A stretch of DNA of 64,000 bases from Planctomycetota bacterium (GCA_027063065.1 JAMOSO010000007.1:1290-65289); one strand, 5' to 3'; numbered from the stretch's first letter, positions 7,797 to 19,085 are shown. Notes: generated from the letters alone by a model not told the origin. Numbers and translations: made by a program.

Positions 7797-9734
7797 TCAT
7801 GATATCTTTTTTAATTTAGCTTTAGCTTGTTTATAAAGATATTTGCGTTCAGTATTAATCATCATATTAATATCAGAATCAGTTATGTTATCATCAGATA
7901 ATAAATTTTTAATAGCTTTTCGTTCGGCAGCGCAAACATTGCCATCGGCTAGTGCTAGGCGTATTAATTGTCTTAAAACCTCATGTGTTTCTTTGTGATT
8001 TTTTAGATCTAATTTAAAATCAGGATTATTTTTAACGTGATTTTCAATGGAATTAAATAGTTTTTGACTAACATTTAATTTGTTTGCCATTTTTAATAAG
8101 GTTTCACGTTCTTTTATGTCGCGTTTGCCATCACTATCCATAACTAAAATCATAGCAGCAATTACTTCTTCAATTGGAATGTTATATAGTGGTGCTTCAA
8201 TTACATCTGGCAATTTGGCTTTGGCTTCGCTTATGGCGTCGTGATAATCTTCGTATTTATATGGTTCAATAGAATCTAAAACCCAATTTTTTAATCCGTC
8301 ATTTAAAGCTATACCACAATAACTACAGCAGTTGCTACTGTCTACAGTTTCAGGGGCTCCACAGCCTATACAACAATTTGCCGATAGAGCGTGTTTAGGA
8401 TTGCTAATGGCGTCTTTATGTCGACACATAATTAATTTATGCTTATATATACGAGAATTTAAAAAGCTGGGTACATCACCTGGTCCAGGTTTAGATTCTT
8501 GCCAACATCCAGACCAAGTTACTATAATATGGCAACGATTCATATCTGCTTTATTATCAAATCTAATAATTTCCACTGAGCCCACTGCTAAATCTTGTGC
8601 AAAAGTACGCATACCTTTTTGGTTTAATTGAAATTCGTTTTTGTGGATATTTAAAAATTTATTATTTGCCATTTTACTTAAATATTTAGCATTACAAAAA
8701 TATCTCGCACTGTGATATCGCCAAAACATAATAGAGGCTCTATCTTCTAGGTATTGAATATTTAATGCTTTATCTTGTTGTTTTAATTGGCTTGCTCCAG
8801 CAATTAAGTCTGGATTACGATGTTGAAATGCTTTAGCTTGGGTTATTTCTGAAAGTACCCAATCATATTCGCCACTGGTAATTAAGGCCTGACAAGACAT
8901 ACATTCTATTTTATCTGATAGCTTTAATGGTGATCCGCAGTTTGGACAAAACCCTTCAATCGCACCGCCTTGTTGTAATGTTTTAGTTCCTGGTTTGCGT
9001 AAAAACGACCAGTATTCTTTAAAGATATCTGTCGACAAAGAATATTTTTTATCTGAGCCTTCTTTAATATAATAATCTGCAGCAGATGCACTAATTGCTA
9101 CAATAATGACGTCAAAAAATTCATCGCATTTATATGATACTACATGTGCATCTTTAATGTCGATATCGGTAATTTTATTAATATATCCATTGGCTTTGTT
9201 TAATTCTAAATTTAGGTTTAATCTATCGTAGATGGCATCACTTAACATGCTTCTAACAGGAGACATGTTTTGGTTGTTCCAAGAATTTTGTAAAGCAAGA
9301 AAGGTTTGCTTGGCGCGTTCTAAAAATTGAATTTCATCAAAATTATTATCACGTTGAATTAATTTGTTTTTTTCATTGCGATTCATTGCAACATCATATT
9401 TGGCATTGCCTGTAGTGATGACATGGCTTTTATAAGAGTTAGCACCTCGTTGTGTACCAACTAAGCTAATATAACCACCTATTAATAACATAGGTATTCC
9501 AATTAATGGATGTTCAAGGCATAACCTAATTAATAAATATAATATTAAACCATCGCCAGAACCACCGCTGGAATGGCCTCCAGAGTATCCACCGCTAGAA
9601 TGGCTACTACCAAAGTTACCGCCACCGCCCATGCGTGCCCAAGTTTCGCTGGGCATAAATAATAGAATTATTAACGAGGCAAAGTATATTTGCCTCGGGG
9701 TTATTAAGCTTGTGAGTTTCCGCATTCTGGGCAA
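7797..9734 (-). CDS. membrane protein with Gly/Ser-rich segment, Tim44-like domain, two zinc ribbons and C-terminal TerB-like domain
   Basis: 645 aa. It has N-terminal hydrophobic segments flanking a GGGGNFGSSHSSGGYSGGHSSGGSG low-complexity tract. Two ZnRs are present: 'CPNCGSPL..x10..CMSC' and 'CIGCGAP..x9..CCSYCG'. The C-terminal tellurite-resistance/TerB-like helical domain reads 'DGKRDIKERETLL...ADGNVCAAERKAIK'. It overlaps the upstream SPFH gene by about 31 nt. Confidence 0.6.
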   Translation of the reverse strand: MPRMRKLTSLITPRQIYFASLIILLFMPSETWARMGGGGNFGSSHSSGGYSGGHSSGGSGDGLILYLLIRLCLEHPLIGIPMLLIGGYISLVGTQRGANSYKSHVITTGNAKYDVAMNRNEKNKLIQRDNNFDEIQFLERAKQTFLALQNSWNNQNMSPVRSMLSDAIYDRLNLNLELNKANGYINKITDIDIKDAHVVSYKCDEFFDVIIVAISASAADYYIKEGSDKKYSLSTDIFKEYWSFLRKPGTKTLQQGGAIEGFCPNCGSPLKLSDKIECMSCQALITSGEYDWVLSEITQAKAFQHRNPDLIAGASQLKQQDKALNIQYLEDRASIMFWRYHSARYFCNAKYLSKMANNKFLNIHKNEFQLNQKGMRTFAQDLAVGSVEIIRFDNKADMNRCHIIVTWSGCWQESKPGPGDVPSFLNSRIYKHKLIMCRHKDAISNPKHALSANCCIGCGAPETVDSSNCCSYCGIALNDGLKNWVLDSIEPYKYEDYHDAISEAKAKLPDVIEAPLYNIPIEEVIAAMILVMDSDGKRDIKERETLLKMANKLNVSQKLFNSIENHVKNNPDFKLDLKNHKETHEVLRQLIRLALADGNVCAAERKAIKNLLSDDNITDSDINMMINTERKYLYKQAKAKLKKIS

Positions 9735-10810
9735 AATTTAGCAGTTGGAGAAAGTAGCGCATTACAGTTCTTGCAGTGCATTTCTTGGGCAGCCCCACAC
9801 AGTGGACAAAATTTAGAGTCTTTAGGAATAGCTTGATTGCATTTTACACAGCTTTGTTCTTGTATGTGTAACGATTGGCCGCATCCACCACAAAATTTAG
9901 CATTGCTAGGTGATTGTTGTTGGCATTTAGGGCAGATTATAACTTCTTTTGGTTGTATTTGCTCTTGAGCTTTACCCATCATTCCGCCAAGATTAGCACC
10001 TACCATCATACCCATCATGTCCCCAGTGCCTCCTTGGTTATTGGCAGCATCTCTTAAAGCTTTTGCTTGTTGGTATTGGGCATATTGATTTAAATTGCCA
10101 ACGGCGCTCATTGATGCGCGTTCGTCAATGGCATTTTGTACGTCATCTGGCAAGCTGATGTTTTCTAGGGTAAAAGATAATAGCTCTAATCCCATTTTGA
10201 TGAAATAGCCATTTAATTTTGTTTTTATAGCATCACTTATTTCATCATATTGTGCAGCTAAATCTAAGGCTGGTATTTTAAGCTCTGCGATTGCATCCGA
10301 AAATGATGATACAATTTTAGTACGCACTTGATCTTCTAGAGCATCGGCAAAAAACTCTTCGCCAGCTCCTACAAATCGACTTAGCATATTTTCTTGTTCA
10401 CCAATTTTATAAGAATAATTACCTCTACATCTTAATCTGACAATGCCAAAGTCAATATCGCGTAACATAATTGGATTTGGAGTACCCCATTTGCGATTTA
10501 ATTGTTCTGTAGTATCAATAAAATAAATTTCAGCTTTGAATGGCGAATTAAACCCATATTTCCATCCATATAAGGTGGATAGTATGGGCATATTTTTGGT
10601 TTCTAGCGTATATGTACCAGCTTCAAACTGATCGGCAATTTTGCCTTCACGCACAAAGATGGCTTTTTGGCCTGGACGCACAATAAGTTGTGCTCCCATT
10701 TTGATTTCATTTTGATAGCGATTAAATCTATGTACCAACAAACCGTCTGTTTTATCAGTCCATTCAATAATATCTATAAATTCATTTTTTAATTTATTAA
10801 ATAATCCCAT
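9704..10810 (-). CDS. SPFH/Band-7 domain protein with three C-terminal zinc-ribbon modules
   Basis: 368 aa. The N-terminal 250 aa have Band-7 character. A Gly/Met-rich linker follows. Then come three tandem CxxC-x10-11-CxxC ribbons (CPKCQ...CGGCG; CVKCN...CPLCG; CKNCN...CPECG). Confidence 0.7.
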   Translation of the reverse strand: MGLFNKLKNEFIDIIEWTDKTDGLLVHRFNRYQNEIKMGAQLIVRPGQKAIFVREGKIADQFEAGTYTLETKNMPILSTLYGWKYGFNSPFKAEIYFIDTTEQLNRKWGTPNPIMLRDIDFGIVRLRCRGNYSYKIGEQENMLSRFVGAGEEFFADALEDQVRTKIVSSFSDAIAELKIPALDLAAQYDEISDAIKTKLNGYFIKMGLELLSFTLENISLPDDVQNAIDERASMSAVGNLNQYAQYQQAKALRDAANNQGGTGDMMGMMVGANLGGMMGKAQEQIQPKEVIICPKCQQQSPSNAKFCGGCGQSLHIQEQSCVKCNQAIPKDSKFCPLCGAAQEMHCKNCNALLSPTAKFCPECGNSQA

Positions 10811-10908: not shown

Positions 10909-11724
10909 ATGTTTAAAATTAGTGTTATTATTCCTACATATAATCGACCGTTACAAACTTTATCTGCAATTAATTCTGTATTGGCTCAAACGTATAAAAA
11001 TTATGAATTAATAGTAGTCGATGATGGTTCAGAAAAACTCTTAGATACTTCTATATTGCAAAAGCACAATAATTGTCGCGTGCTTTTATTAGATAAAAAT
11101 TATGGGGTTTCTACTGCACGCAATGAAGGTATTAAGGCGTCTAACGGTAATTGGATAGCTTTTTTAGATAGTGATGACATTTGGCATTGTGATAAATTAA
11201 GACAGCAGGTTTTATATTTAAAACAAAATTTAGAATGTCAGATAGTACAAACTCAGGAGCAATGGATTAGGCATGGTAAAAAAGTTAACCAGCCCAAAAA
11301 ATGGCATAAAAAACAAGGTTGGATTTTTGAGCTTTCTTTGCAACGTTGTACTATTAGTCCTTCGTCAGTGTTGATTCAACGTAGTTTATTAGATGAAGTT
11401 GGTTGGTTTAATCCTAATTATTTAGCCTGTGAGGACTATGATTTATGGTTGCGAATAACATTAATTAGGCCTGTTGGTTTAGTAAATAAAATTTTAATGA
11501 CTAAATATGGAGGGGCTTCAGATCAATTATCTACATCTGTACAGAAGCAAGATATTTTTAGAATAAAGGCATTGCATAATATTTTAACATATGATTTAAA
11601 TATTAATCAACGTGAAGCTGTATTGGATTGTTTAAATAAAAAAATTGAAATAGTAGTAAATGGTTTTAAAAAACGTGGTAAATTAGCAGAGGCTGAAAAT
11701 TTTTATATTGATTTTCATACTTAG
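10909..11724 (+). CDS. family 2 glycosyltransferase
   Basis: 'ISVIIPTYNRP...ELIVVDDGS' opening, plus a 'DSDD' (DxD) motif at about residue 88. Confidence 0.75.
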   Translation: MFKISVIIPTYNRPLQTLSAINSVLAQTYKNYELIVVDDGSEKLLDTSILQKHNNCRVLLLDKNYGVSTARNEGIKASNGNWIAFLDSDDIWHCDKLRQQVLYLKQNLECQIVQTQEQWIRHGKKVNQPKKWHKKQGWIFELSLQRCTISPSSVLIQRSLLDEVGWFNPNYLACEDYDLWLRITLIRPVGLVNKILMTKYGGASDQLSTSVQKQDIFRIKALHNILTYDLNINQREAVLDCLNKKIEIVVNGFKKRGKLAEAENFYIDFHT

Positions 11725-11792: not shown

Positions 11793-12674
11793 ATGAAATT
11801 TGTTAATCCTCAAAATGATTTTGCATTTAAAAAGATATTTGGTAATGAACAAAAAACATCTATTTTGGTTTCTTTATTAAATTCAGTTTTAGATTTTAAA
11901 GGTCAAAATAAGATAAAAAGCGTATCGATAGCTAATCCATATCAAGTTCCAAAGATTGATGCGTTAAAAGAAACAGTCTTAGATGTTAAAGCAGTAAATC
12001 GGCGAGGAGAGAGTTTTATTGTAGAAATGCAAAGAAAAGACAATCATGATTTTGCTAAGCGAAGCTTATATTATACTTCTAAAGCTTATGTGTCTCAGTT
12101 AGAGCCAGGAGTACAGCACGGGTATGCTAATTTAAAAAAAGTTTATTTTATAGGTTTTTTAAATTTTAATATGTTTGCAGGAGACAACTATATAAGTAGA
12201 CATTTAATTTTAAATAAAGACACGCTCAAACAAGAAATTAATGATTTTGAGTTTACTTTTATAGAACTGACAAAATTTAAAAAAAAGTTATCAGATTTAA
12301 CTACGGTATTAGATAAATGGATATATTTTATCAATAATGTACAGAATTTAACTATGATACCTCAGGAATTTTCTAATTTAGATGAATTTAAATTAGCTTT
12401 TGATACCGCTAATCAGTGTTGTTGGGATGCTAAGGAATTAGAAATTTATGAATATATGGCATTTAAAGAATATGAAGACCGCATGTACGTGCAACGTGAA
12501 ATAGCTAAAGGTGTTCAAAAAGGCATTGAGCAAGGCATTGAGCAAGGCATTGAGCAAGGCATTGAGCAAGCGAAAATTGAGACTGCTAAAAATCTTAAAG
12601 CTTTAAATATAGATGTTAATGTAATTGCTAAATCAACAGGGTTATCTATAAGACAAATTGATAATATTCATTAA
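11793..12674 (+). CDS. Rpn/YhgA-like PD-(D/E)XK recombination-promoting nuclease / putative transposase
   Basis: 293 aa. The 'FAFKKIFG' N-terminus, a 'LDVKAV...ESFIVEMQ' D...E-x-Q nuclease-core pattern and 'FIELTKF' are characteristic of the YhgA-like family. The C-terminal tail contains (GIEQ)x4. Confidence 0.65.
   Translation: MKFVNPQNDFAFKKIFGNEQKTSILVSLLNSVLDFKGQNKIKSVSIANPYQVPKIDALKETVLDVKAVNRRGESFIVEMQRKDNHDFAKRSLYYTSKAYVSQLEPGVQHGYANLKKVYFIGFLNFNMFAGDNYISRHLILNKDTLKQEINDFEFTFIELTKFKKKLSDLTTVLDKWIYFINNVQNLTMIPQEFSNLDEFKLAFDTANQCCWDAKELEIYEYMAFKEYEDRMYVQREIAKGVQKGIEQGIEQGIEQGIEQAKIETAKNLKALNIDVNVIAKSTGLSIRQIDNIH
12523..12570 (+). repeat. perfect 12-nt tandem repeat x4 (ggcattgagcaa) inside the Rpn-like CDS
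   Basis: Seen directly. It encodes GIEQGIEQGIEQGIEQ in frame. Confidence 0.9.
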
Positions 12675-12756: not shown

Positions 12757-13689
12757 ATGCAAAATGCAATAGAAATTAAGGGATTGACTAAATTCTATAG
12801 GGGTAAATTTTTTAGATTAAGTGTTAATCCATCTTTGGATAATTTAAATTTAAATATACCTCAAGGTTGTGTATTTGGTTTTTTAGGCCATAACGGAGCG
12901 GGTAAGACTACTGCTATTAAGTGTTTAATGGACTTGATTAAACCGACAAAAGGCAGTGTTACTATTTTTGATTTGCCTGTCGATAGTAAAGAGGCTCGCA
13001 AAAAAATTGGTTATTTACCAGATGCTCCATCGTTTAGTTCTCATTTGTCCCCTAATCAGTTTTTAAAAACTTGTGCTAAATTAGTAGGCCTAGATTGGCA
13101 ACTTCGTAAGCAACGCATAGAGGAGGTCTTAACTGATGTGGGTATGCTTGAGTATGCTTCAAATAATATGGGTTCTTTTTCGCGTGGTATGATGCAGCGA
13201 ATCGGTATTGCTCAAGCTTTATTAAATAAGCCTGAGCTTTTGATTTTAGATGAACCTTTAGTAGGCTTAGATCCTCAAGGTCGCAGAGATTTATTAACAA
13301 TAGTACAGAAGCAAAAAGAATTAGGTACAACTGTTTTTTTTTGTTCACATATTTTATCTGATGTAGAAAAACTATGTGATTCGGTGGGCATTTTAAGTAA
13401 AGGTAAACTATTATTTGCTGGCGCTTTAAATCAGTTGACAAGCAGTGATGGGATCGTGGTTAAGTTTCCGGCGGAACACTTAGCAATAGCTCAATCTTTT
13501 ATGATGCAAGCAGATAGTTCAAAAAAAATAGATGATGGTGGCGTGGCATTAGAGTTTATTACAAATAATAATTGGCAATTAATTAAAAGAGCATCATTGC
13601 CTTCAAATGTGATAATAGAGGCGCATCATGGAACTTTAGAGGAAGAATTTTTTAAATTAACAGGTGAGGATACACCAGGCAATACATAA
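12757..13689 (+). CDS. ABC transporter ATP-binding protein (ABC-2 subfamily)
   Basis: Walker A 'GHNGAGKTT', signature-like 'FSRGMMQRIGIAQAL' and Walker B 'LLILDEP'. Confidence 0.85.
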   Translation: MQNAIEIKGLTKFYRGKFFRLSVNPSLDNLNLNIPQGCVFGFLGHNGAGKTTAIKCLMDLIKPTKGSVTIFDLPVDSKEARKKIGYLPDAPSFSSHLSPNQFLKTCAKLVGLDWQLRKQRIEEVLTDVGMLEYASNNMGSFSRGMMQRIGIAQALLNKPELLILDEPLVGLDPQGRRDLLTIVQKQKELGTTVFFCSHILSDVEKLCDSVGILSKGKLLFAGALNQLTSSDGIVVKFPAEHLAIAQSFMMQADSSKKIDDGGVALEFITNNNWQLIKRASLPSNVIIEAHHGTLEEEFFKLTGEDTPGNT

Positions 13690-13694
13690 CTAAA

Positions 13695-14435
13695 ATGGAG
13701 ATAGGCATGGATGAGGTCAATGCGATAGCAGAAGGTGTGTGGGGTAGGATTTTACGTATGAAAATATTGTATTTTTTGATAGGTTGTGCTTGGTTGCATA
13801 TAATTTTATCATCACAGTATGAAGCTTTAATGTTAAAAGAACAAAAGATGTTAATGGCAGATATGTCATTTTTTTTGGCGGGATTAGGTGCTGTTTTAAG
13901 TGTTTTAACTTTAACTTTTGATTTGTCTAAAGATTTGCGTCAAGGTACAGCTATCGCTTATTTGTCTAAGTCTGTTAGTCGCACTCAGTATATTTTTGGT
14001 AAATTTTTAGGCACTGTTTGGGTTGGCGTTGTTGTGACCGTATTAATTGCCATAGGTTTTTTTATGATTCATAATGCCACTTATGGCTCTTTACCTGTAG
14101 TAATGGTAAAGGCGCATTTACTTATTATAATTTCAGTTTTACCCATGGCGGCAATAGCTTTGTTTTTTTCTACTATATTGTCTGAAGCTGCCGCTGCTGT
14201 TTTAACGGTAGCAACAATTTGGATGGCTTATTCAGCTAATGCAATTAGTTCTGTATCTATGTTATATGGTGGCATTGTGCCAGATTTAAGCTTATTTAAT
14301 ATGCGTATGGAGGCGGTTCATGGCACACAATTTGGCTGGTCTTATATAGGTTTAGCATTTATATGGAGTGTTGTTTATTCTGTTGGATTAGTTTCATTGT
14401 CAGGCATCTTTTTTAATAAACGTGATCTTGGTTAA
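13695..14435 (+). CDS. ABC-2 type transporter permease
   Basis: 246 aa with about six hydrophobic helices. It lies 5 nt after the ATPase gene. Confidence 0.55.
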   Translation: MEIGMDEVNAIAEGVWGRILRMKILYFLIGCAWLHIILSSQYEALMLKEQKMLMADMSFFLAGLGAVLSVLTLTFDLSKDLRQGTAIAYLSKSVSRTQYIFGKFLGTVWVGVVVTVLIAIGFFMIHNATYGSLPVVMVKAHLLIIISVLPMAAIALFFSTILSEAAAAVLTVATIWMAYSANAISSVSMLYGGIVPDLSLFNMRMEAVHGTQFGWSYIGLAFIWSVVYSVGLVSLSGIFFNKRDLG

Positions 14436-14446
14436 GGAGGCTTACA

Positions 14447-15427
14447 ATGGATTCAAATAAAAAATTAATTGTTACATTTATTTGTTGTTTTGTAATTGCT
14501 GGTGTATTGGCAATCAAACTTAATAGGGTACAACATCAAGTTTCTCCAACTCGTAAGTTAGTGGACAATTTACCTGTGGCTGGGTCGCAAAAATTATTAG
14601 CTGATATACAATGGATGCAATTTATTCAGTATATAGGTCGTCAAAAAACTTTAGATAAATCTAGTGCTGCAAATGTCGAAAAGCGCTTAAATAACATTAT
14701 TGATTTAGATCCAGATTTTGCAAAAGTCTATTATGATGGTGCTTTAGTTTTGATGAATGATAACCCTGACGGCGCTTTAAAAGTGTTAGAAAAAGGTATG
14801 TTACATCCAATTATTGGTCGTAATTGGCGTTTATATATGCTTGCAGGTCATATTTTAATTCAGGGAGAAAGGGCAAATCGTCATGCACATCTACCTATAA
14901 ATTATAATCGTGTCAAACGTGCGGCATTATATTTTAAAAAAGCAATGAATTGTGCAGATTCGCAAAATTATGTAGTTAATCAATGGCTACAAGCAGAAGC
15001 TTTTAATGCTAGTGAAACTGCTAGTCATTTGACTCAGTTGCAGACTATGCTGAGATTGTACAAAAAGCATTTAACTGATATGCAAGATAATGAAAATGAA
15101 ATGTCTACGGGTATTTTTGGTAAATATGATACACAAGAATTTATTGATAAAATGATATCTGAGGCTTTAGAATTGCGTCAAGAAAGTGAAAATCAAAAAG
15201 GTCTGAAAGCGTTATTAGATGAAGTAGTGTTGACTGTTTTTCCTAATCAAGAAATAGACCCTTATACTTTACGCCCATATCCTGCAGGTTTTAGGTTTTC
15301 TCCACAAACAGGAAAGCCATTAAAGGTACATGGTGTGTGCAAGCATTGTGGACGTGTGTTGAAGGGACCATTTTGTTGGTATGATGGTACTGATAATGTG
15401 GCAGAGTGGAATAAATCTAAGCACTAA
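14447..15427 (+). CDS. membrane-anchored helical (TPR-like) protein with C-terminal Cys4 ribbon
   Basis: N-terminal TM (LIVTFICCFVIAGVLAI), a strong SD (aaggagg), and C-terminal 'CKHCGRVLKGPFCWYDG'. Confidence 0.5.
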   Translation: MDSNKKLIVTFICCFVIAGVLAIKLNRVQHQVSPTRKLVDNLPVAGSQKLLADIQWMQFIQYIGRQKTLDKSSAANVEKRLNNIIDLDPDFAKVYYDGALVLMNDNPDGALKVLEKGMLHPIIGRNWRLYMLAGHILIQGERANRHAHLPINYNRVKRAALYFKKAMNCADSQNYVVNQWLQAEAFNASETASHLTQLQTMLRLYKKHLTDMQDNENEMSTGIFGKYDTQEFIDKMISEALELRQESENQKGLKALLDEVVLTVFPNQEIDPYTLRPYPAGFRFSPQTGKPLKVHGVCKHCGRVLKGPFCWYDGTDNVAEWNKSKH

Positions 15428-15441
15428 GTGTTTGGTCTTAG

Positions 15442-16140
15442 TTGATGGTCATTAAAAGAAAAGTTATTAGTTTATTTACGCTAATGCTTTTCTTTTTTTT
15501 ATATTTGGTTGCCGAGCGTGGTTTACGTACGCAAGTATATGATAATGCTCAATTAAATAGTTTTGATTATCGAAAAACTATGGAAATGTTACCAGAGTTT
15601 TTGAGAATAGCATTGGAGCATCAGGTATTATTGGTTGAAAAACGTAAAAATGTTAATAATGCTAAAGGCGATGCTAAAATTAAGGCAATGTACATTTTAG
15701 CTGATGAGTATGGTTTAGGTATTAATTTTAGTGATTTAATGTTGCAAATAACACAAGATTCTAAGTTAAGAAATTCCAAATACGCTAGTCGCGCTTGGTT
15801 ACATGTGTTAAAGGGCAAATCAGACAAAAATGTATTAGCAATTTATTTGCAATATTTGCACTCTATTAAAAAAGCGACTCATACAGACTTGATAGATTTG
15901 TTTAAATCTGGTTTACAGTTGGCACCTTTTGCAGAAGAAGAGGTTAAATTAAAGTATTATTTAAATATGGCAAAAAATAATTTGATTGATAAAACTTTGA
16001 TAGATGCTTATGAAGACTTTGTGTTATTGTCATTTAAAGATGCAAATATAAAACAAATAGCAGAGAAATATTTAAAAGCATCTAAAGATGATTTATTGCA
16101 ATTTGAAGCCTCTCAAGCACGTAAAAGGGCTACAAAATAA
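15442..16140 (+). CDS. membrane-anchored hypothetical protein
   Basis: Single N-terminal TM, the remainder helical. Same tight operon. Confidence 0.45.
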   Translation: MMVIKRKVISLFTLMLFFFLYLVAERGLRTQVYDNAQLNSFDYRKTMEMLPEFLRIALEHQVLLVEKRKNVNNAKGDAKIKAMYILADEYGLGINFSDLMLQITQDSKLRNSKYASRAWLHVLKGKSDKNVLAIYLQYLHSIKKATHTDLIDLFKSGLQLAPFAEEEVKLKYYLNMAKNNLIDKTLIDAYEDFVLLSFKDANIKQIAEKYLKASKDDLLQFEASQARKRATK

Positions 16141-16141
16141 T

Positions 16142-16888
16142 ATGTGGGCTATAGCATGTCATACTTTGTATAAGGTCAAAGAGCCAGCTTTTGTATTATT
16201 GTTATTTGTAGGTGCTTTATTGGCTTGGTTTACTAAAGATATGGGTTGTATTTCGTTGATTGGTGAAGGTATTCATCGAGATAATATATTAATAGGTACA
16301 GTTATAATATTATCTTTTGGTGTAGTGGTGGCTTTGTTAGTAGGAGCAACAGAAATACCTAAGGATATGGACGCTAATATGATAGCAATTTTTTTAGGAA
16401 AATCTCTAAAACGAGAAGCGTATATTTTAGGTAAGGTAATAGGAGTTGCCATTTTAATTGTTAGCTGTTCAGGATTTTGGCTAACTTTACTTTTGTTAAG
16501 TCGTTATTGTTTTACGTTTGATAATGCAATCGAGGCTATGTCGTTTGTTGATATTTGTAGTCAATATTTCAGCTTACTTTTATTATTGCCTGTTTGTGCG
16601 CTTGCCATTTGTACATCGTGTTTATTTGGTGATTTGGGTGCTATGATTTTTAGTTTTATTTATATGGGTTGTTCTTTATTGGTGAGCATTGTACCTTATA
16701 TTTTAAAAATAGTTCCAAAGCCAATTAATTATATATTAGAAATACCTTATTATTTAGTGCCTAATGTTATGTATTTTGTCAGTAGTTTAGATGTCATAGG
16801 TTTTTTATATTTGGTTATGTATGCTTTAGTTATAGGTATGTGTTTTGTATTGATTGCACAAAATGTATTTAACAAGGCGGAGTTATAG
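16142..16888 (+). CDS. polytopic membrane protein (ABC-2 permease-like)
   Basis: About six TM helices. I moved the start to the Met at 16142, which abuts the upstream stop at 16140; the track ORF starts at 16088. Confidence 0.45.
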   Translation: MWAIACHTLYKVKEPAFVLLLFVGALLAWFTKDMGCISLIGEGIHRDNILIGTVIILSFGVVVALLVGATEIPKDMDANMIAIFLGKSLKREAYILGKVIGVAILIVSCSGFWLTLLLLSRYCFTFDNAIEAMSFVDICSQYFSLLLLLPVCALAICTSCLFGDLGAMIFSFIYMGCSLLVSIVPYILKIVPKPINYILEIPYYLVPNVMYFVSSLDVIGFLYLVMYALVIGMCFVLIAQNVFNKAEL

Positions 16889-17014
16889 GGCGCATTTAAA
16901 TCTTTTGTACTGTGATAAATTTCTTGAGAATAGGCATAACTTGTGTATCATTGTAATTTTATTATATTCGCTGTTTATGCTTTTGCGTATACAGTTTTGT
17001 TTTGAAAGAAATAT

Positions 17015-18781
17015 ATGAATCCACATACTTTTCATATCCCAGTACTTGGGACAGCCTTTACCATAGATACACCTATTAAGGTGGCTCGTTTTGGTATATC
17101 TTCTGTTATATCTTTAGCGGATGACTTTTTAATTGAAGATATGCGTAAAGTTTATGCTACCAAGTATTCTCAAGAATATACTCGTATTGAAAATAATGCT
17201 GAAGATGCTAGGGCACGTCGTATTACCAGTTATTTAAATTTAGTGAATTATATTGTTAATCAACAAATAGAAAATTTAAAACAAGAAGAATTTAAAGCTG
17301 ATACTGAAATTACTAAGTATTTTGAATTATTACCCGATGGTGTTTTAAAAACTAAATATCAAGCTATGTTAAATGCTTCGGCATCTGATAGACACAAATT
17401 AGAAGAAGAGTTGCGAGGAGCTATTAGGCCAGGTCGTATTGATGTTAATATTATGACTAAACTAGATAGGGATAATTATAAAAATCGTCAAAAGTTACCT
17501 TCTGAATTTAGTGATGCTTTAGCTGGCTTGCGTGGTTTTGCCCAAAGTGATTTAAGTAATGCGTGTGTTGTGTTTTCGGCTGGAATGAATCCTCGATTGT
17601 ATGGTTATGCTACAGAATTTAAAGATTTTTATCCAAATGAAGAAGGCGTCATTAAAAAAGGTATTATACTTAAGGTAAGTGATTATCGTTCTACAGCTAC
17701 GCAAGGTAAATTTTTAGCCAAGCGTGGTTTGTGGGTACAAGAATATAGGATAGAATCAGGCCTTAATTGTGGTGGTCACGCATTTGCTACTGCTGGGCTA
17801 TTAATGGGACCAATATTACAAGAATTTAAAGATAATCGTGATGATTTGCAGGCAAAGCTTGTTAAAATTTGGTTAAAGGGCATTGATAAGCAAAAGCATC
17901 AGGCTCATGGTTTAGAACCTAAGTTTGGCATTACTTATCAGGGAGGTTTAGGTAGTGCCCAAGAAAATAAATTTCTATGTACTTATTATAATTTAGAAGG
18001 TACTGGGTGGGGAACTCCATTTATGTTGGTACCAGAGGCTATCACAATAGATGATGATCATTTGTTAAAATTAGCTAAAGCTAAAACAGGTGATGTGTGC
18101 TTAAGTAAGGCGTCTCCATTAGGTGTGCCATTTTGGTTATTAAAGGCATCTTCTAGTGAAGACGAGCGCAAACAACGTATATCTGCAAATAAATCTGGTA
18201 GTCCTTGTCCTCAGGGTATATTAAAATTTGATACGGAATTTACTGAAGTGCCTATTTGTACGGCATCAAGGGGTTATCAAAATTTAAAATTAAAACAATT
18301 ACAAGATGCTAATTTAAGTGATGAACAAAGAGCAGAATTAATAGACGATGTTTTATGTAAAAGTTGTATTTGTAAAGATTTAGGTGGCTCAGCTCAGCTG
18401 ATATATAATGTTGTAAAACAGGTGGCCATTACTGTGTGCTCAGGGCCTAATATTGTAAATTTTTCGCAAACAGCAACTTTGCAAGAAATGGTGGATTTTA
18501 TTTATGGTCGAGTGAGTGGTTTAGCAGATTCTGATCGTCCGCATGTATTTTTAAATGAATTAAATATTTATATTGAATATTTCCGCACAGAATGGCATCG
18601 TTTTTCTATTGGGTTGTTAGACAAGAAAGATACTTATTTTAAAGAATTCCAACAAAATTTATTAAATGGTGTTGAATATTATAAAAATATTACTGAAAAT
18701 TTTATGGAAGATACACGTAGTACATTTTTGACAAGATTAGATGCTTTGCGCCGTGAAGTGGAACATTTAATTCCTGTATAG
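17015..18781 (+). CDS. conserved hypothetical protein, 588 aa, unknown fold
   Basis: Long intact ORF. Conserved-looking blocks are 'IPVLGTAFTIDTPIKVARFGISSVISLADD' and 'LNCGGHAFATAGLLMGP'. I could not assign a family. Confidence 0.5.
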   Translation: MNPHTFHIPVLGTAFTIDTPIKVARFGISSVISLADDFLIEDMRKVYATKYSQEYTRIENNAEDARARRITSYLNLVNYIVNQQIENLKQEEFKADTEITKYFELLPDGVLKTKYQAMLNASASDRHKLEEELRGAIRPGRIDVNIMTKLDRDNYKNRQKLPSEFSDALAGLRGFAQSDLSNACVVFSAGMNPRLYGYATEFKDFYPNEEGVIKKGIILKVSDYRSTATQGKFLAKRGLWVQEYRIESGLNCGGHAFATAGLLMGPILQEFKDNRDDLQAKLVKIWLKGIDKQKHQAHGLEPKFGITYQGGLGSAQENKFLCTYYNLEGTGWGTPFMLVPEAITIDDDHLLKLAKAKTGDVCLSKASPLGVPFWLLKASSSEDERKQRISANKSGSPCPQGILKFDTEFTEVPICTASRGYQNLKLKQLQDANLSDEQRAELIDDVLCKSCICKDLGGSAQLIYNVVKQVAITVCSGPNIVNFSQTATLQEMVDFIYGRVSGLADSDRPHVFLNELNIYIEYFRTEWHRFSIGLLDKKDTYFKEFQQNLLNGVEYYKNITENFMEDTRSTFLTRLDALRREVEHLIPV

Positions 18782-18785
18782 TCTT

Positions 18786-19085
18786 TTATATATCTAAAGC
18801 AGCTAATTGTTGTATAAAATATTGGTATAATATTTTTAATGCTAAAAAAGACGCTATGGTTATTGTTGTGCATAAAATAGTGATTATAACTTTAGTTGCT
18901 TTTTTGTATGTGGGATGAAACCAAATAAGCGGCAACATCAAAGGACCTACACATAAAAAAGAAAATACGATATTTGGAGTTCTATAATACCATCTAATTT
19001 GATTGCATCCGCAAAAACGACATTTAATAGCAGCATCTTGAATTTCTTCAGCACAAAAGAGGCATTTTTTCATTGTTTTTTCCAA
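18786..19085 (-). CDS. small zinc-ribbon membrane protein
   Basis: 99 aa. N-terminal 'CLFCAEE...CRFCGC' ribbon followed by two TM helices. Confidence 0.45.
   Translation of the reverse strand: MEKTMKKCLFCAEEIQDAAIKCRFCGCNQIRWYYRTPNIVFSFLCVGPLMLPLIWFHPTYKKATKVIITILCTTITIASFLALKILYQYFIQQLAALDI

Follow-up and report, generated by a model that had tools for sequence, protein, structure and literature searches.

A putative ABC-2 exporter cassette of five genes, with two single-helix accessory proteins, and its flavoenzyme-like neighbour in a Planctomycetota genome

Layout of the block

The stretch of DNA analysed here (termed the window, 64,000 nucleotides) carries a run of six open reading frames on the plus strand, all of which the initial annotation had placed correctly and every one of which encodes a protein with homologues:

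12757..13689, plus strand: g1, ABC-2-type ATPase of 310 aa with a C-terminal extension of ~75 aa (Pfam ABC_tran)
13695..14435, plus strand: g2, ABC-2 permease A of 246 aa (242 aa from ATG 13707), ~6 membrane helices (ABC2_membrane_2, hydropathy)
14447..15427, plus strand: g3, single-helix accessory protein of 326 aa, with an N-terminal membrane helix, a TPR-like domain and a degenerate zinc ribbon
15442..16140, plus strand: g4, single-helix accessory protein of 232 aa from TTG, or 231 aa from ATG 15445
16142..16888, plus strand: g5, ABC-2 permease B of 248 aa (266 aa from 16088), ~6 membrane helices, paralogue of g2
16889..17014, plus strand: spacer of 126 nt between the cassette and g6
17015..18781, plus strand: g6, 588 aa, predicted FMN-type TIM-barrel protein, outside the cassette

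At a G+C content of ~32%, about 7.6% of random codons are stops, and arithmetic from this rate gives a chance of ~1e-8 per start for an open frame of at least 232 codons. The genes g1–g5 (12757-16888, plus strand) constitute the five-gene cassette. The gap between g1 and g2 is 5 nt, or 17 nt if g2 begins at ATG 13707, which is the choice of gene callers and results in the 242 aa that are the length in homologues; g2 and g3 are separated by 11 nt and g3 and g4 by 14 nt, while g4 and g5 either overlap by 53 nt (g5 start 16088) or are 1 nt apart (start 16142, the position where g5 homologues begin). The spacing of 5-15 nt, or overlap under an alternative start, that had been claimed for the whole block does not extend to g5 and g6, which lie 126 nt apart. 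In this spacer no terminator-like site was found after g5, the scan performing no better than on shuffled sequence, so that co-transcription of g6 with the cassette in this organism is possible. The spacer contains a single sigma-70-like match (16924-16951), and such matches are not enriched in the region (33 found, 38 expected from shuffled sequence). An Rfam scan of the 64-kb window gave no matches.

Conserved gene order and proteins of the cassette

The order ATPase, permease, TPR/zinc-ribbon protein, single-helix protein, permease is kept in 11 of 11 related loci, as far as their contigs reach. It is present in five loci found via the ATPase (L018, L019, L020, L021, L022) and in the Kiritimatiellaeota-labelled contig L031, and a scan of metagenome contigs with four g3 sequences independently returned five loci (L023-L027) that show the same order to the limit of each contig, with the exception of L024, in which the ATPase gene is missing ahead of the permease. 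Source labels are carried by three of the 11 loci (Victivallaceae for L020, Lentisphaerae-group for one other, Kiritimatiellaeota for L031). It had been proposed that homologous loci in which the genes are not conserved together would speak against the block; g1–g5 do stay together in the related loci examined, whereas g6 is absent beside the cassette there, which leaves five of the six genes that the initial annotation had grouped. Apart from the cassette, which thus has the character of a self-contained module, nothing is common to the window and the related loci; in every locus examined it is surrounded by unrelated housekeeping contexts. About 120 homologues of g1 were found at 47-57% identity, with named sources that are all Lentisphaerae, Victivallales or Kiritimatiellaeota MAGs, and a scan of genome contigs of species representatives with g1 returned only unrelated ABC ATPases of at most 37% identity. 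The cassette seems restricted to one part of the PVC group, Lentisphaerae/Victivallales/Kiritimatiellaeota, and a literature search for papers on it in Lentisphaerae/Kiritimatiellaeota gave nothing relevant.

The g1 protein matches Pfam ABC_tran (E 6e-30), as is expected of a generic ABC-2 (type V) ATPase. It has an intact Walker A, Walker B (DE) and H-loop, which are conserved over the ~120 family members, and judged by these motifs the ATPase should be catalytically competent; the family is further marked by a Q-loop of the form GF/YLPD, in which Asp replaces Gln, and by the signature FSRGM. The closest solved structures are the nucleotide-binding domains of ABCA1/3/4/7 (E about 1e-54), and the closest solved stand-alone bacterial ATPase is NosF, aligned over residues 3-276 (274 residues), C-terminal domain included (E 1e-49).

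The initial annotation listed three membrane proteins of unknown function besides the ATPase and the permease. Two of them, g3 and g4, indeed have one predicted helix each, but the third, g5, has ~6 helices and is a second permease, not an accessory protein. Its own match to ABC2_membrane_2 is weak and under the cut-off (16.3 bits), and its homologues match ABC2_membrane_2 or _3; g2, as a generic ABC-2 permease, passes the cut-off of the former model (28.3 bits, cut-off 27.2). The g2 and g5 profiles align with each other in hhalign at a probability of 98% (E 1e-13), and the two permeases are paralogues. Identity to the gene in the same position is 39-48% for g2 (10 loci) and 32-36% for g5. A PDB profile search with g2 found nothing, and according to Pfam, NCBIfam and hydropathy neither permease has a large extracytoplasmic domain. 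The nearest likenesses of the permeases, all weak, are PmtD, an RbbA-type ABC-2 permease and MutG, the last being matched by one of nine g2 relatives (E 0.003); the solved chain of PmtD is matched by the g5 family profile (E about 1e-3).

The structure of g3, predicted with high confidence, comprises a membrane helix, a TPR array in which tandem helix-turn-helix repeats build a superhelix, and a zinc ribbon. Its family counts 143 representatives, which surfaced only in a full HMMER search, as a word-index search with g3 returned the query alone; no Pfam or NCBIfam model matched g3 or g4 of the window. The C-terminal Cys4 ribbon that had been noticed earlier is a feature of the family, but in the window it is degenerate, with Cys298, Cys301 and Cys310 followed by Asp313 at the fourth position. 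In the column of Asp313, 29 of 49 family members have Cys; the double zinc ribbon of Pfam (DZR), with two CxxC pairs per ribbon, is recognised in 23 of the 49, and its first ribbon is wholly lost in the g3 of the window. In about one third of the relatives this putative metal site is replaced by a Cys-free, beta-rich domain. Of the shorter relatives of the N-terminal domain in g3, the one inspected has no adjoining ABC transporter, therefore this domain alone does not predict ABC association. Around the g3 helix, Lys and Arg are more numerous in the C-terminal flank in 36 of 48 relatives and in the N-terminal flank in one; yet the short N-terminal flank, 'MKK', is basic in the manner of a signal anchor, and the net charge, with acidic residues counted, shows no preference for the C-terminus-in orientation, so that topology is ambiguous.

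The second single-helix protein, g4, has an N-terminal membrane helix that ends in a conserved Y-x4-E-x2-LR motif. No family match was obtained in any library searched (Pfam, NCBIfam, defence-system, PDB profile search), where the only PDB profile hit, CpoB, is marginal (E 0.024). Genes in the same position in seven loci are 17-24% identical to g4, several relatives have strongly Lys-rich C-terminal tails, and no relatives outside the cassette are detectable. The possibility that g3 and g4 are paralogues was rejected (hhalign probability 0.1%).

The domain order of g3, i.e., N-terminal membrane anchor, TPR repeats and C-terminal CxxC...CxxC metal site, is shared with LapB (YciM), the domains of which are cytoplasmic and act as an adaptor. 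The resemblance is architectural only, and the LapB gene does not lie inside an ABC operon. The identification of g3 as LapB was rejected, since a g3 profile search of the PDB did not retrieve LapB at E up to 10 and no NCBIfam model matched. The LapB architecture (membrane anchor, TPR, C-terminal metal site) was described for the E. coli regulator of LPS assembly (PMC11046580).

The neighbouring gene g6

The description of g6 as an unknown protein of 588 aa is right insofar as it matched no Pfam model (NMO included) and no NCBIfam model; its predicted fold is, however, recognisable as an FMN-type TIM barrel of the nitronate-monooxygenase/FabK/FabX kind with a conserved cysteine set. As in FabX, where a [4Fe-4S] subdomain is borne after the barrel, conserved cysteines follow the barrel of g6, but their spacing differs (C398, C415, C451, C453 and C475 in g6; C300, C304, C308 and C320 in FabX), the two proteins are 16% identical, and g6 has extra helical insertions (588 aa against 366 aa). 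An invariant Gly-Gly-His255 is found in g6, and by motif resemblance only His255 may correspond to the catalytic His182 of FabX, which stands in the motif G180-x-H182 (PMC8626469).

That g6 belongs to the system was not borne out. It never follows the cassette in any related locus reaching past g5, and in four other genomes its homologues stand alone among unrelated neighbours, with no ABC genes nearby. Its family is also spread far wider than the cassette, with more than 8000 clusters in many phyla and about 53% identity across phyla, against the 143 representatives of g3. Consequently, although g6 lies on the strand of the cassette behind a gap with no terminator-like site, it is very improbable that all six genes are one functional unit, in which the flavin enzyme would, e.g., make or modify the cargo. 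Instead, g6 is best regarded as a neighbouring gene for a putative flavin-type oxidoreductase, the role of which is unrelated to the cassette. Being large, highly conserved, unannotated and flavoenzyme-like, the family is a reasonable biochemical target.

Possible function of the cassette

The initial suggestion of an accessory-rich ABC-2 system that fits no named one agrees with the NCBIfam scores, all of which are far under the curated cut-offs. Against TIGR01188 (DrrA) g1 scores 200 bits (cut-off 312), which places it outside DrrAB, and against TIGR03522 (GldA), the third-best ATPase model, 157 bits (cut-off 402.6). The GldA/GldF/GldG system likewise combines an ABC-2 ATPase, a permease and an accessory membrane protein, but the large periplasmic domain of GldG is absent from the cassette and neither GldF nor GldG is matched among g2-g5 in NCBIfam. 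In the defence-system library only generic ATPase matches were obtained.

We favour the reading that g1–g5 are a conserved type-V ABC exporter cassette with cytoplasmic adaptors and that g6 is an unrelated neighbour, and we give this whole statement a probability of roughly 0.55. The composition of the cassette and the separation of g6 from it are, taken alone, very probable; the mechanism of an exporter with cytoplasmic adaptors, taken alone, is tentative. Starting from gene content, homologies, conserved order and predicted folds, we infer stoichiometry, topology, direction of transport and cargo as follows. The complex would consist of a g1 ATPase dimer, one copy each of g2 and g5 as a heterodimeric membrane domain, and g3 and g4 as accessory subunits. 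The soluble domains of g3 and g4 probably face the cytoplasm, where Cys4 zinc sites are typically located; the Lys/Arg counts around the g3 helix and the Lys-rich tails of g4 relatives favour this side as well. Their role there could be that of an adaptor or regulator that hands a client over to the transporter or gates its ATPase. What the transporter expels from the inner membrane would be an amphipathic or lipid-linked component of the envelope, as with its nearest relatives PmtCD, LanFEG and the ABCA lipid transporters.

Other readings draw on the same likenesses. Over its whole length, C-terminal domain included, g1 has NosF as one of its closest solved relatives, and the ABC-2 system NosDFY(L) relies on accessory proteins; one may ask, then, if the cassette is not a transporter but a mechanotransducer of the NosDFY/FtsEX kind, in which conformational changes powered by ATP hydrolysis in g1 would pass via g2/g5 to g3/g4, and these would act on a partner such as an enzyme, a protease or a factor for envelope assembly. 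Typical of such machines is a pair of dedicated accessory subunits that are strictly inherited together with the rest, one of them with a TPR interaction domain, and cargo-related genes are not conserved near the cassette. However, Nos has one permease and the cassette two paralogous ones, no Pfam or NCBIfam match to NosY, NosD or NosL was found among g2-g5, an FtsX-like partner is missing as well, g2 and g5 have no large extracytoplasmic domain, and such likenesses as the permeases show are to true exporters (PmtD, MutG), which makes this reading unlikely.

PmtABCD is the phenol-soluble-modulin exporter of Staphylococcus and LanFEG are lantibiotic-immunity transporters, and a peptide-toxin export or self-immunity transporter of this kind would clear an amphipathic peptide from the membrane. 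These systems share with the cassette the ABC-2/type-V class, two different permease genes per system and small 6-helix permeases that have no large external domain; one ATPase, two distinct permeases of ~250 aa and accessory membrane proteins mirror LanFEG with LanH/LanI. The best permease matches also come from these systems, although they are weak (PmtD E 1e-5 to 1e-3; MutG), and the lantibiotic-protection ATPase TIGR03740 is the second-best NCBIfam match of g1 (E 8e-51). Nevertheless, every score is far under its curated cut-off, the shortfall being put at 5-10 fold (for g2, PmtD 25 bits against 220; for g1, PmtA 129 against 350, PmtC 118 against 375 and TIGR03740 173 against 310). Pmt has two ATPase genes and the cassette a single one, the subunits g3 and g4 have no counterpart in PmtABCD/LanFEG, and the membrane proteins found no match in the defence-system library. 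Furthermore, the cassette occurs in Gram-negative PVC bacteria, with no bacteriocin, lanthipeptide-modification, peptide or regulatory genes found near any locus. Since its contexts are unrelated housekeeping ones at every locus examined, a housekeeping function fits better than strain-specific immunity, and the peptide reading is decidedly unlikely.

A bolder version, which we consider rather improbable, is that the cassette is a lineage-specific PVC envelope machine, in which a LapB-like, membrane-anchored g3 adaptor acts with g4 to link a client in the cytoplasm to the ABC-2 motor. Such a client might be an enzyme that makes lipids or glycans, or a protein destined for extraction or degradation. 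We know of no description of an ABC-2 transporter that is used in this way, through cytoplasmic adaptor subunits. Separately, this version would allow the g6 family to be a major FMN/iron-sulfur enzyme, so far uncharacterised, in the lipid metabolism of anaerobes. ABC-2 transporters are common and their function is usually decided by accessory subunits; what is new here is the pairing of two unannotated families (g3 and g4) with a two-permease ABC-2 core, and current understanding is not overturned by the cassette or by the g6 family. The envelopes of the PVC lineages that bear the cassette are poorly understood, and a step of envelope biogenesis that is specific to the lineage could come to light once its cargo or client is named. 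One observation speaks against cytoplasmic adaptors: at four loci, all of a single lineage, the gene directly upstream of the cassette is a membrane-anchored, CBM9-like one, and its presence may hint at a role outside the cytoplasm that is related to carbohydrates.

Gene order and conservation of the cassette

The genes g1-g5, located on the plus strand (12757-16888), form a real, conserved ABC-2 cassette that includes accessory proteins of two unannotated families, and g6, which lies downstream, is a separate, widespread flavoenzyme-like gene that is unrelated to the cassette. All six plus-strand ORFs proposed in the initial annotation are present, with exactly the coordinates given there:

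12757-13689, plus strand: g1, ORF, ABC ATPase
13695-14435, plus strand: g2, ORF, ABC-2 permease
14447-15427, plus strand: g3, ORF, accessory protein
15442-16140, plus strand: g4, ORF, accessory protein
16088 or 16142 to 16888, plus strand: g5, ORF with two possible starts, second permease
17015-18781, plus strand: g6, ORF, 588-aa protein

In DNA this AT-rich (G+C of the window ~32%), the probability that open frames of such length arise by chance is negligible, and homologues exist for each of the six proteins. The better-supported starts are probably the ATG at 13707 for g2, which gives 242 aa as in the homologues, the ATG at 15445 for g4 and, judging from where homologues begin, 16142 for g5. 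The spacing of 5-15 nt or overlap ascribed to the whole block holds within g1-g4, where the consecutive gaps are 5, 11 and 14 nt, but not before g6, which is separated from g5 by 126 nt; g4 and g5 overlap by 53 nt or lie 1 nt apart, depending on the g5 start.

The closest g1 homologues are 47-57% identical, and those with a named source come from Lentisphaerae, Victivallales or Kiritimatiellaeota MAGs. By similarity only, homologues with known sources point to a PVC-group bacterium of low G+C as the origin of the window. The g1-g5 order is kept in the related loci reached via the ATPase (L018, L019, L020, L021, L022 and L031, the last as far as its contig reaches) and also in those found independently via g3 (L023-L027, as far as each contig extends). 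Products encoded at the same positions are 39-48% identical for g2, 25-37% for g3, 17-24% for g4 and 27-36% for g5. The exception is L024, in which the permease, the TPR protein, g4 and the second permease are present with no ATPase upstream, and which may reflect chimeric assembly or rearrangement. Its upstream 1.4 kb (L024 1-1470) holds only an odd Arg/Gly/Ala-rich ORF, and the sequence looks anomalous.

The conserved neighbourhood sought in relatives was thus found for g1-g5 (L024 lacking the ATPase) but not for g6, which never follows the cassette in related loci and stands alone among unrelated genes in four other genomes, with no conserved neighbours in five genomes; its inclusion in a six-gene block is contradicted by this gene order. 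Apart from the cassette, no neighbouring genes are common to the window and the related loci. In one lineage, a gene for a 305-316-aa CBM9_1-like protein directly precedes the ATPase gene:

L020, 8975-9892: CBM9_1-like gene
L021, 6994-7944: CBM9_1-like gene
L022, 7010-7945: CBM9_1-like gene
L027, 2-199: CBM9_1-like gene

The copies are 45-52% identical and comprise an N-terminal hydrophobic segment (membrane anchor), a Lys-rich linker and the CBM9_1-like domain. This gene, absent from the window, L018 and L019, may encode a lineage-specific sixth subunit. L018 and L019, the two closest loci, share another conserved ABC cluster downstream of the cassette (L018 14242-20933, L019 6947-13475). It encodes an ABC-2-like membrane protein of 519-524 aa, on the opposite strand, together with an ATPase of 249-256 aa, a PqqD-like protein and an FtsX-domain protein of ~1650 aa; no such cluster occurs in the window.

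Transporter core and accessory proteins

g1 encodes an ABC ATPase (E 6e-30 to Pfam ABC_tran), whose nearest solved relatives are the nucleotide-binding domains of ABCA1/3/4/7 (E ~1e-54), with NosF at E 1e-49. Intact Walker A, Walker B and H-loop motifs are conserved in ~120 homologues, Asp replaces the Q-loop Gln in the family, and the signature motif is FSRGM. The g2 product matches the ABC-2 permeases just over the Pfam cut-off, and g5, initially taken for an unknown membrane protein, is instead a second permease paralogous to g2 (hhalign probability 98%, E 1e-13), whose family profile gives a weak match to PmtD, a permease of solved structure (E ~1e-3). Both are 6-helix ABC-2 permeases without large external domains. 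At the sequence level, the core is shown to consist of one ATPase gene with competent motifs and two paralogous ABC-2 permeases. The view of an accessory-rich ABC-2 arrangement with no specific named match was borne out, as none of Gld, Nos, LanFEG, Pmt and Drr was reached at curated thresholds, and a literature search for such a cassette in Lentisphaerae/Kiritimatiellaeota turned up nothing relevant.

The core is strictly co-inherited with two single-helix proteins, one of which has a TPR and zinc-ribbon architecture. This protein, g3, has a single N-terminal membrane helix and no match in Pfam or NCBIfam; in a full HMMER scan its family proved to have 143 representatives, and a word-index search returned g3 only. 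The confident AlphaFold2 model built with 49 family members (pLDDT 92.9) predicts a long membrane helix that is followed by some ten helices and then by a small beta ribbon. The C-terminal Cys4 ribbon reported initially is a feature of the family, 23 of the 49 members matching the Pfam double zinc ribbon, but not of the window protein, in which the first ribbon is missing and the second reads C298, C301, C310 and D313; most relatives have the fourth Cys at the D313 column. In about a third of relatives a Cys-free beta-rich domain takes the place of the ribbon. The g4 protein, with no match in any library searched, including Pfam and NCBIfam, and no detectable relationship to g3, has one membrane helix, the end of which carries a conserved Y-x4-E-x2-LR motif.

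The domain order of g3 resembles that of E. coli LapB, which has a membrane anchor, TPR and a metal-binding C-terminus (PMC11046580). Membership of g3 in the LapB family was rejected, since there is neither sequence similarity nor specific fold similarity, and the likeness is therefore a lead to mechanism. Outside the cassette there are shorter (~250 aa), membrane-anchored proteins (P0344-P0389) related to the N-terminal TPR region of g3, with which they share the motifs ADxxW(L/M)xFIQY and LDPxF; the one checked (L030 6001-6753) adjoins a prepilin-type gene, with no ABC genes in its vicinity.

Proposed working of the cassette

We infer a complex in which a g1 dimer would sit on a heterodimer of g2 and g5, and g3 and g4 would join it as adaptor or regulator. 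The soluble domains of both accessory proteins probably face the cytoplasm, because the distribution of Lys/Arg favours C-terminus-in in 36 of 48 g3 relatives, Cys4 zinc ribbons are typically cytoplasmic and several g4 relatives end in Lys-rich tails. Yet this orientation is not secure, given the short, basic N-terminal flank of the g3 helix, the Cys-free domain in a third of relatives and the CBM9-like neighbour of one lineage, which could be a sign of an outward orientation.

If it works as its nearest relatives PmtCD, LanFEG and ABCA do, the core would move a molecule that is amphipathic or lipid-linked out of the inner membrane. The main rival to such expulsion is a mechanotransducer that, like NosDFY or FtsEX, transports nothing. 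A role in bacteriocin immunity is less likely, as the cassette occurs in housekeeping contexts and no peptide genes lie alongside it.

The sixth gene and the flanking genes

The g6 family includes >8000 homologous clusters, the best 120 of which are all 51-55% identical (~53% across phyla) and contain no Pfam domain; the few named homologues are from Planctomycetota, Desulfobacterales, Acidimicrobiia and others. The protein had been called unknown, which holds in so far as no Pfam or NCBIfam model was found for the family, but its predicted fold is recognisable: the confident AlphaFold2 model (pLDDT 87.7, pTM 0.89) shows an FMN TIM barrel as in FabX, FabK and nitronate monooxygenase, and enoyl-reductase domains of fatty-acid and polyketide synthases are also listed for it. 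The motif ...ESGLNCGGH255 is invariant, and H255 may, by motif resemblance only (FabX G180-x-H182), be the counterpart of the FabX catalytic His182. Five invariant cysteines (C398, C415, C451, C453, C475) follow the barrel; FabX carries a [4Fe-4S] subdomain at this place, although the cysteine spacing differs (PMC8626469). Judged from fold and conserved residues only, g6 most likely encodes an FMN oxidoreductase of an uncharacterised kind, which may also have an iron-sulfur or zinc site.

The cassette and g6 are flanked by the following genes:

10909-11724: GT2 glycosyltransferase, upstream of the cassette
11793-12674, plus strand: Rpn/PDDEXK_2 (Rpn-family PD-(D/E)XK) transposase-like gene, directly upstream of the cassette
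18786-19085, minus strand: 99-aa ORF, no family match; one pipeline calls a 95-aa gene
downstream of g6, opposite strand: B12-dependent ribonucleotide reductase NrdJ

The Rpn-family gene, which sits between the glycosyltransferase gene and the cassette and has a fourfold GIEQ repeat near its C-terminus, may mark a local rearrangement. The 99-aa ORF converges on g6, with 4 nt between the two, and follows NrdJ on the minus strand. The window also encodes, on the minus strand, an SPFH/Band-7 protein that has a double zinc ribbon at its C-terminus (9704-10810) and a protein of 645 aa in which Tim44-like and TerB-like regions occur (7797-9734); the two genes overlap by 31 nt and constitute a possible membrane-stress pair.
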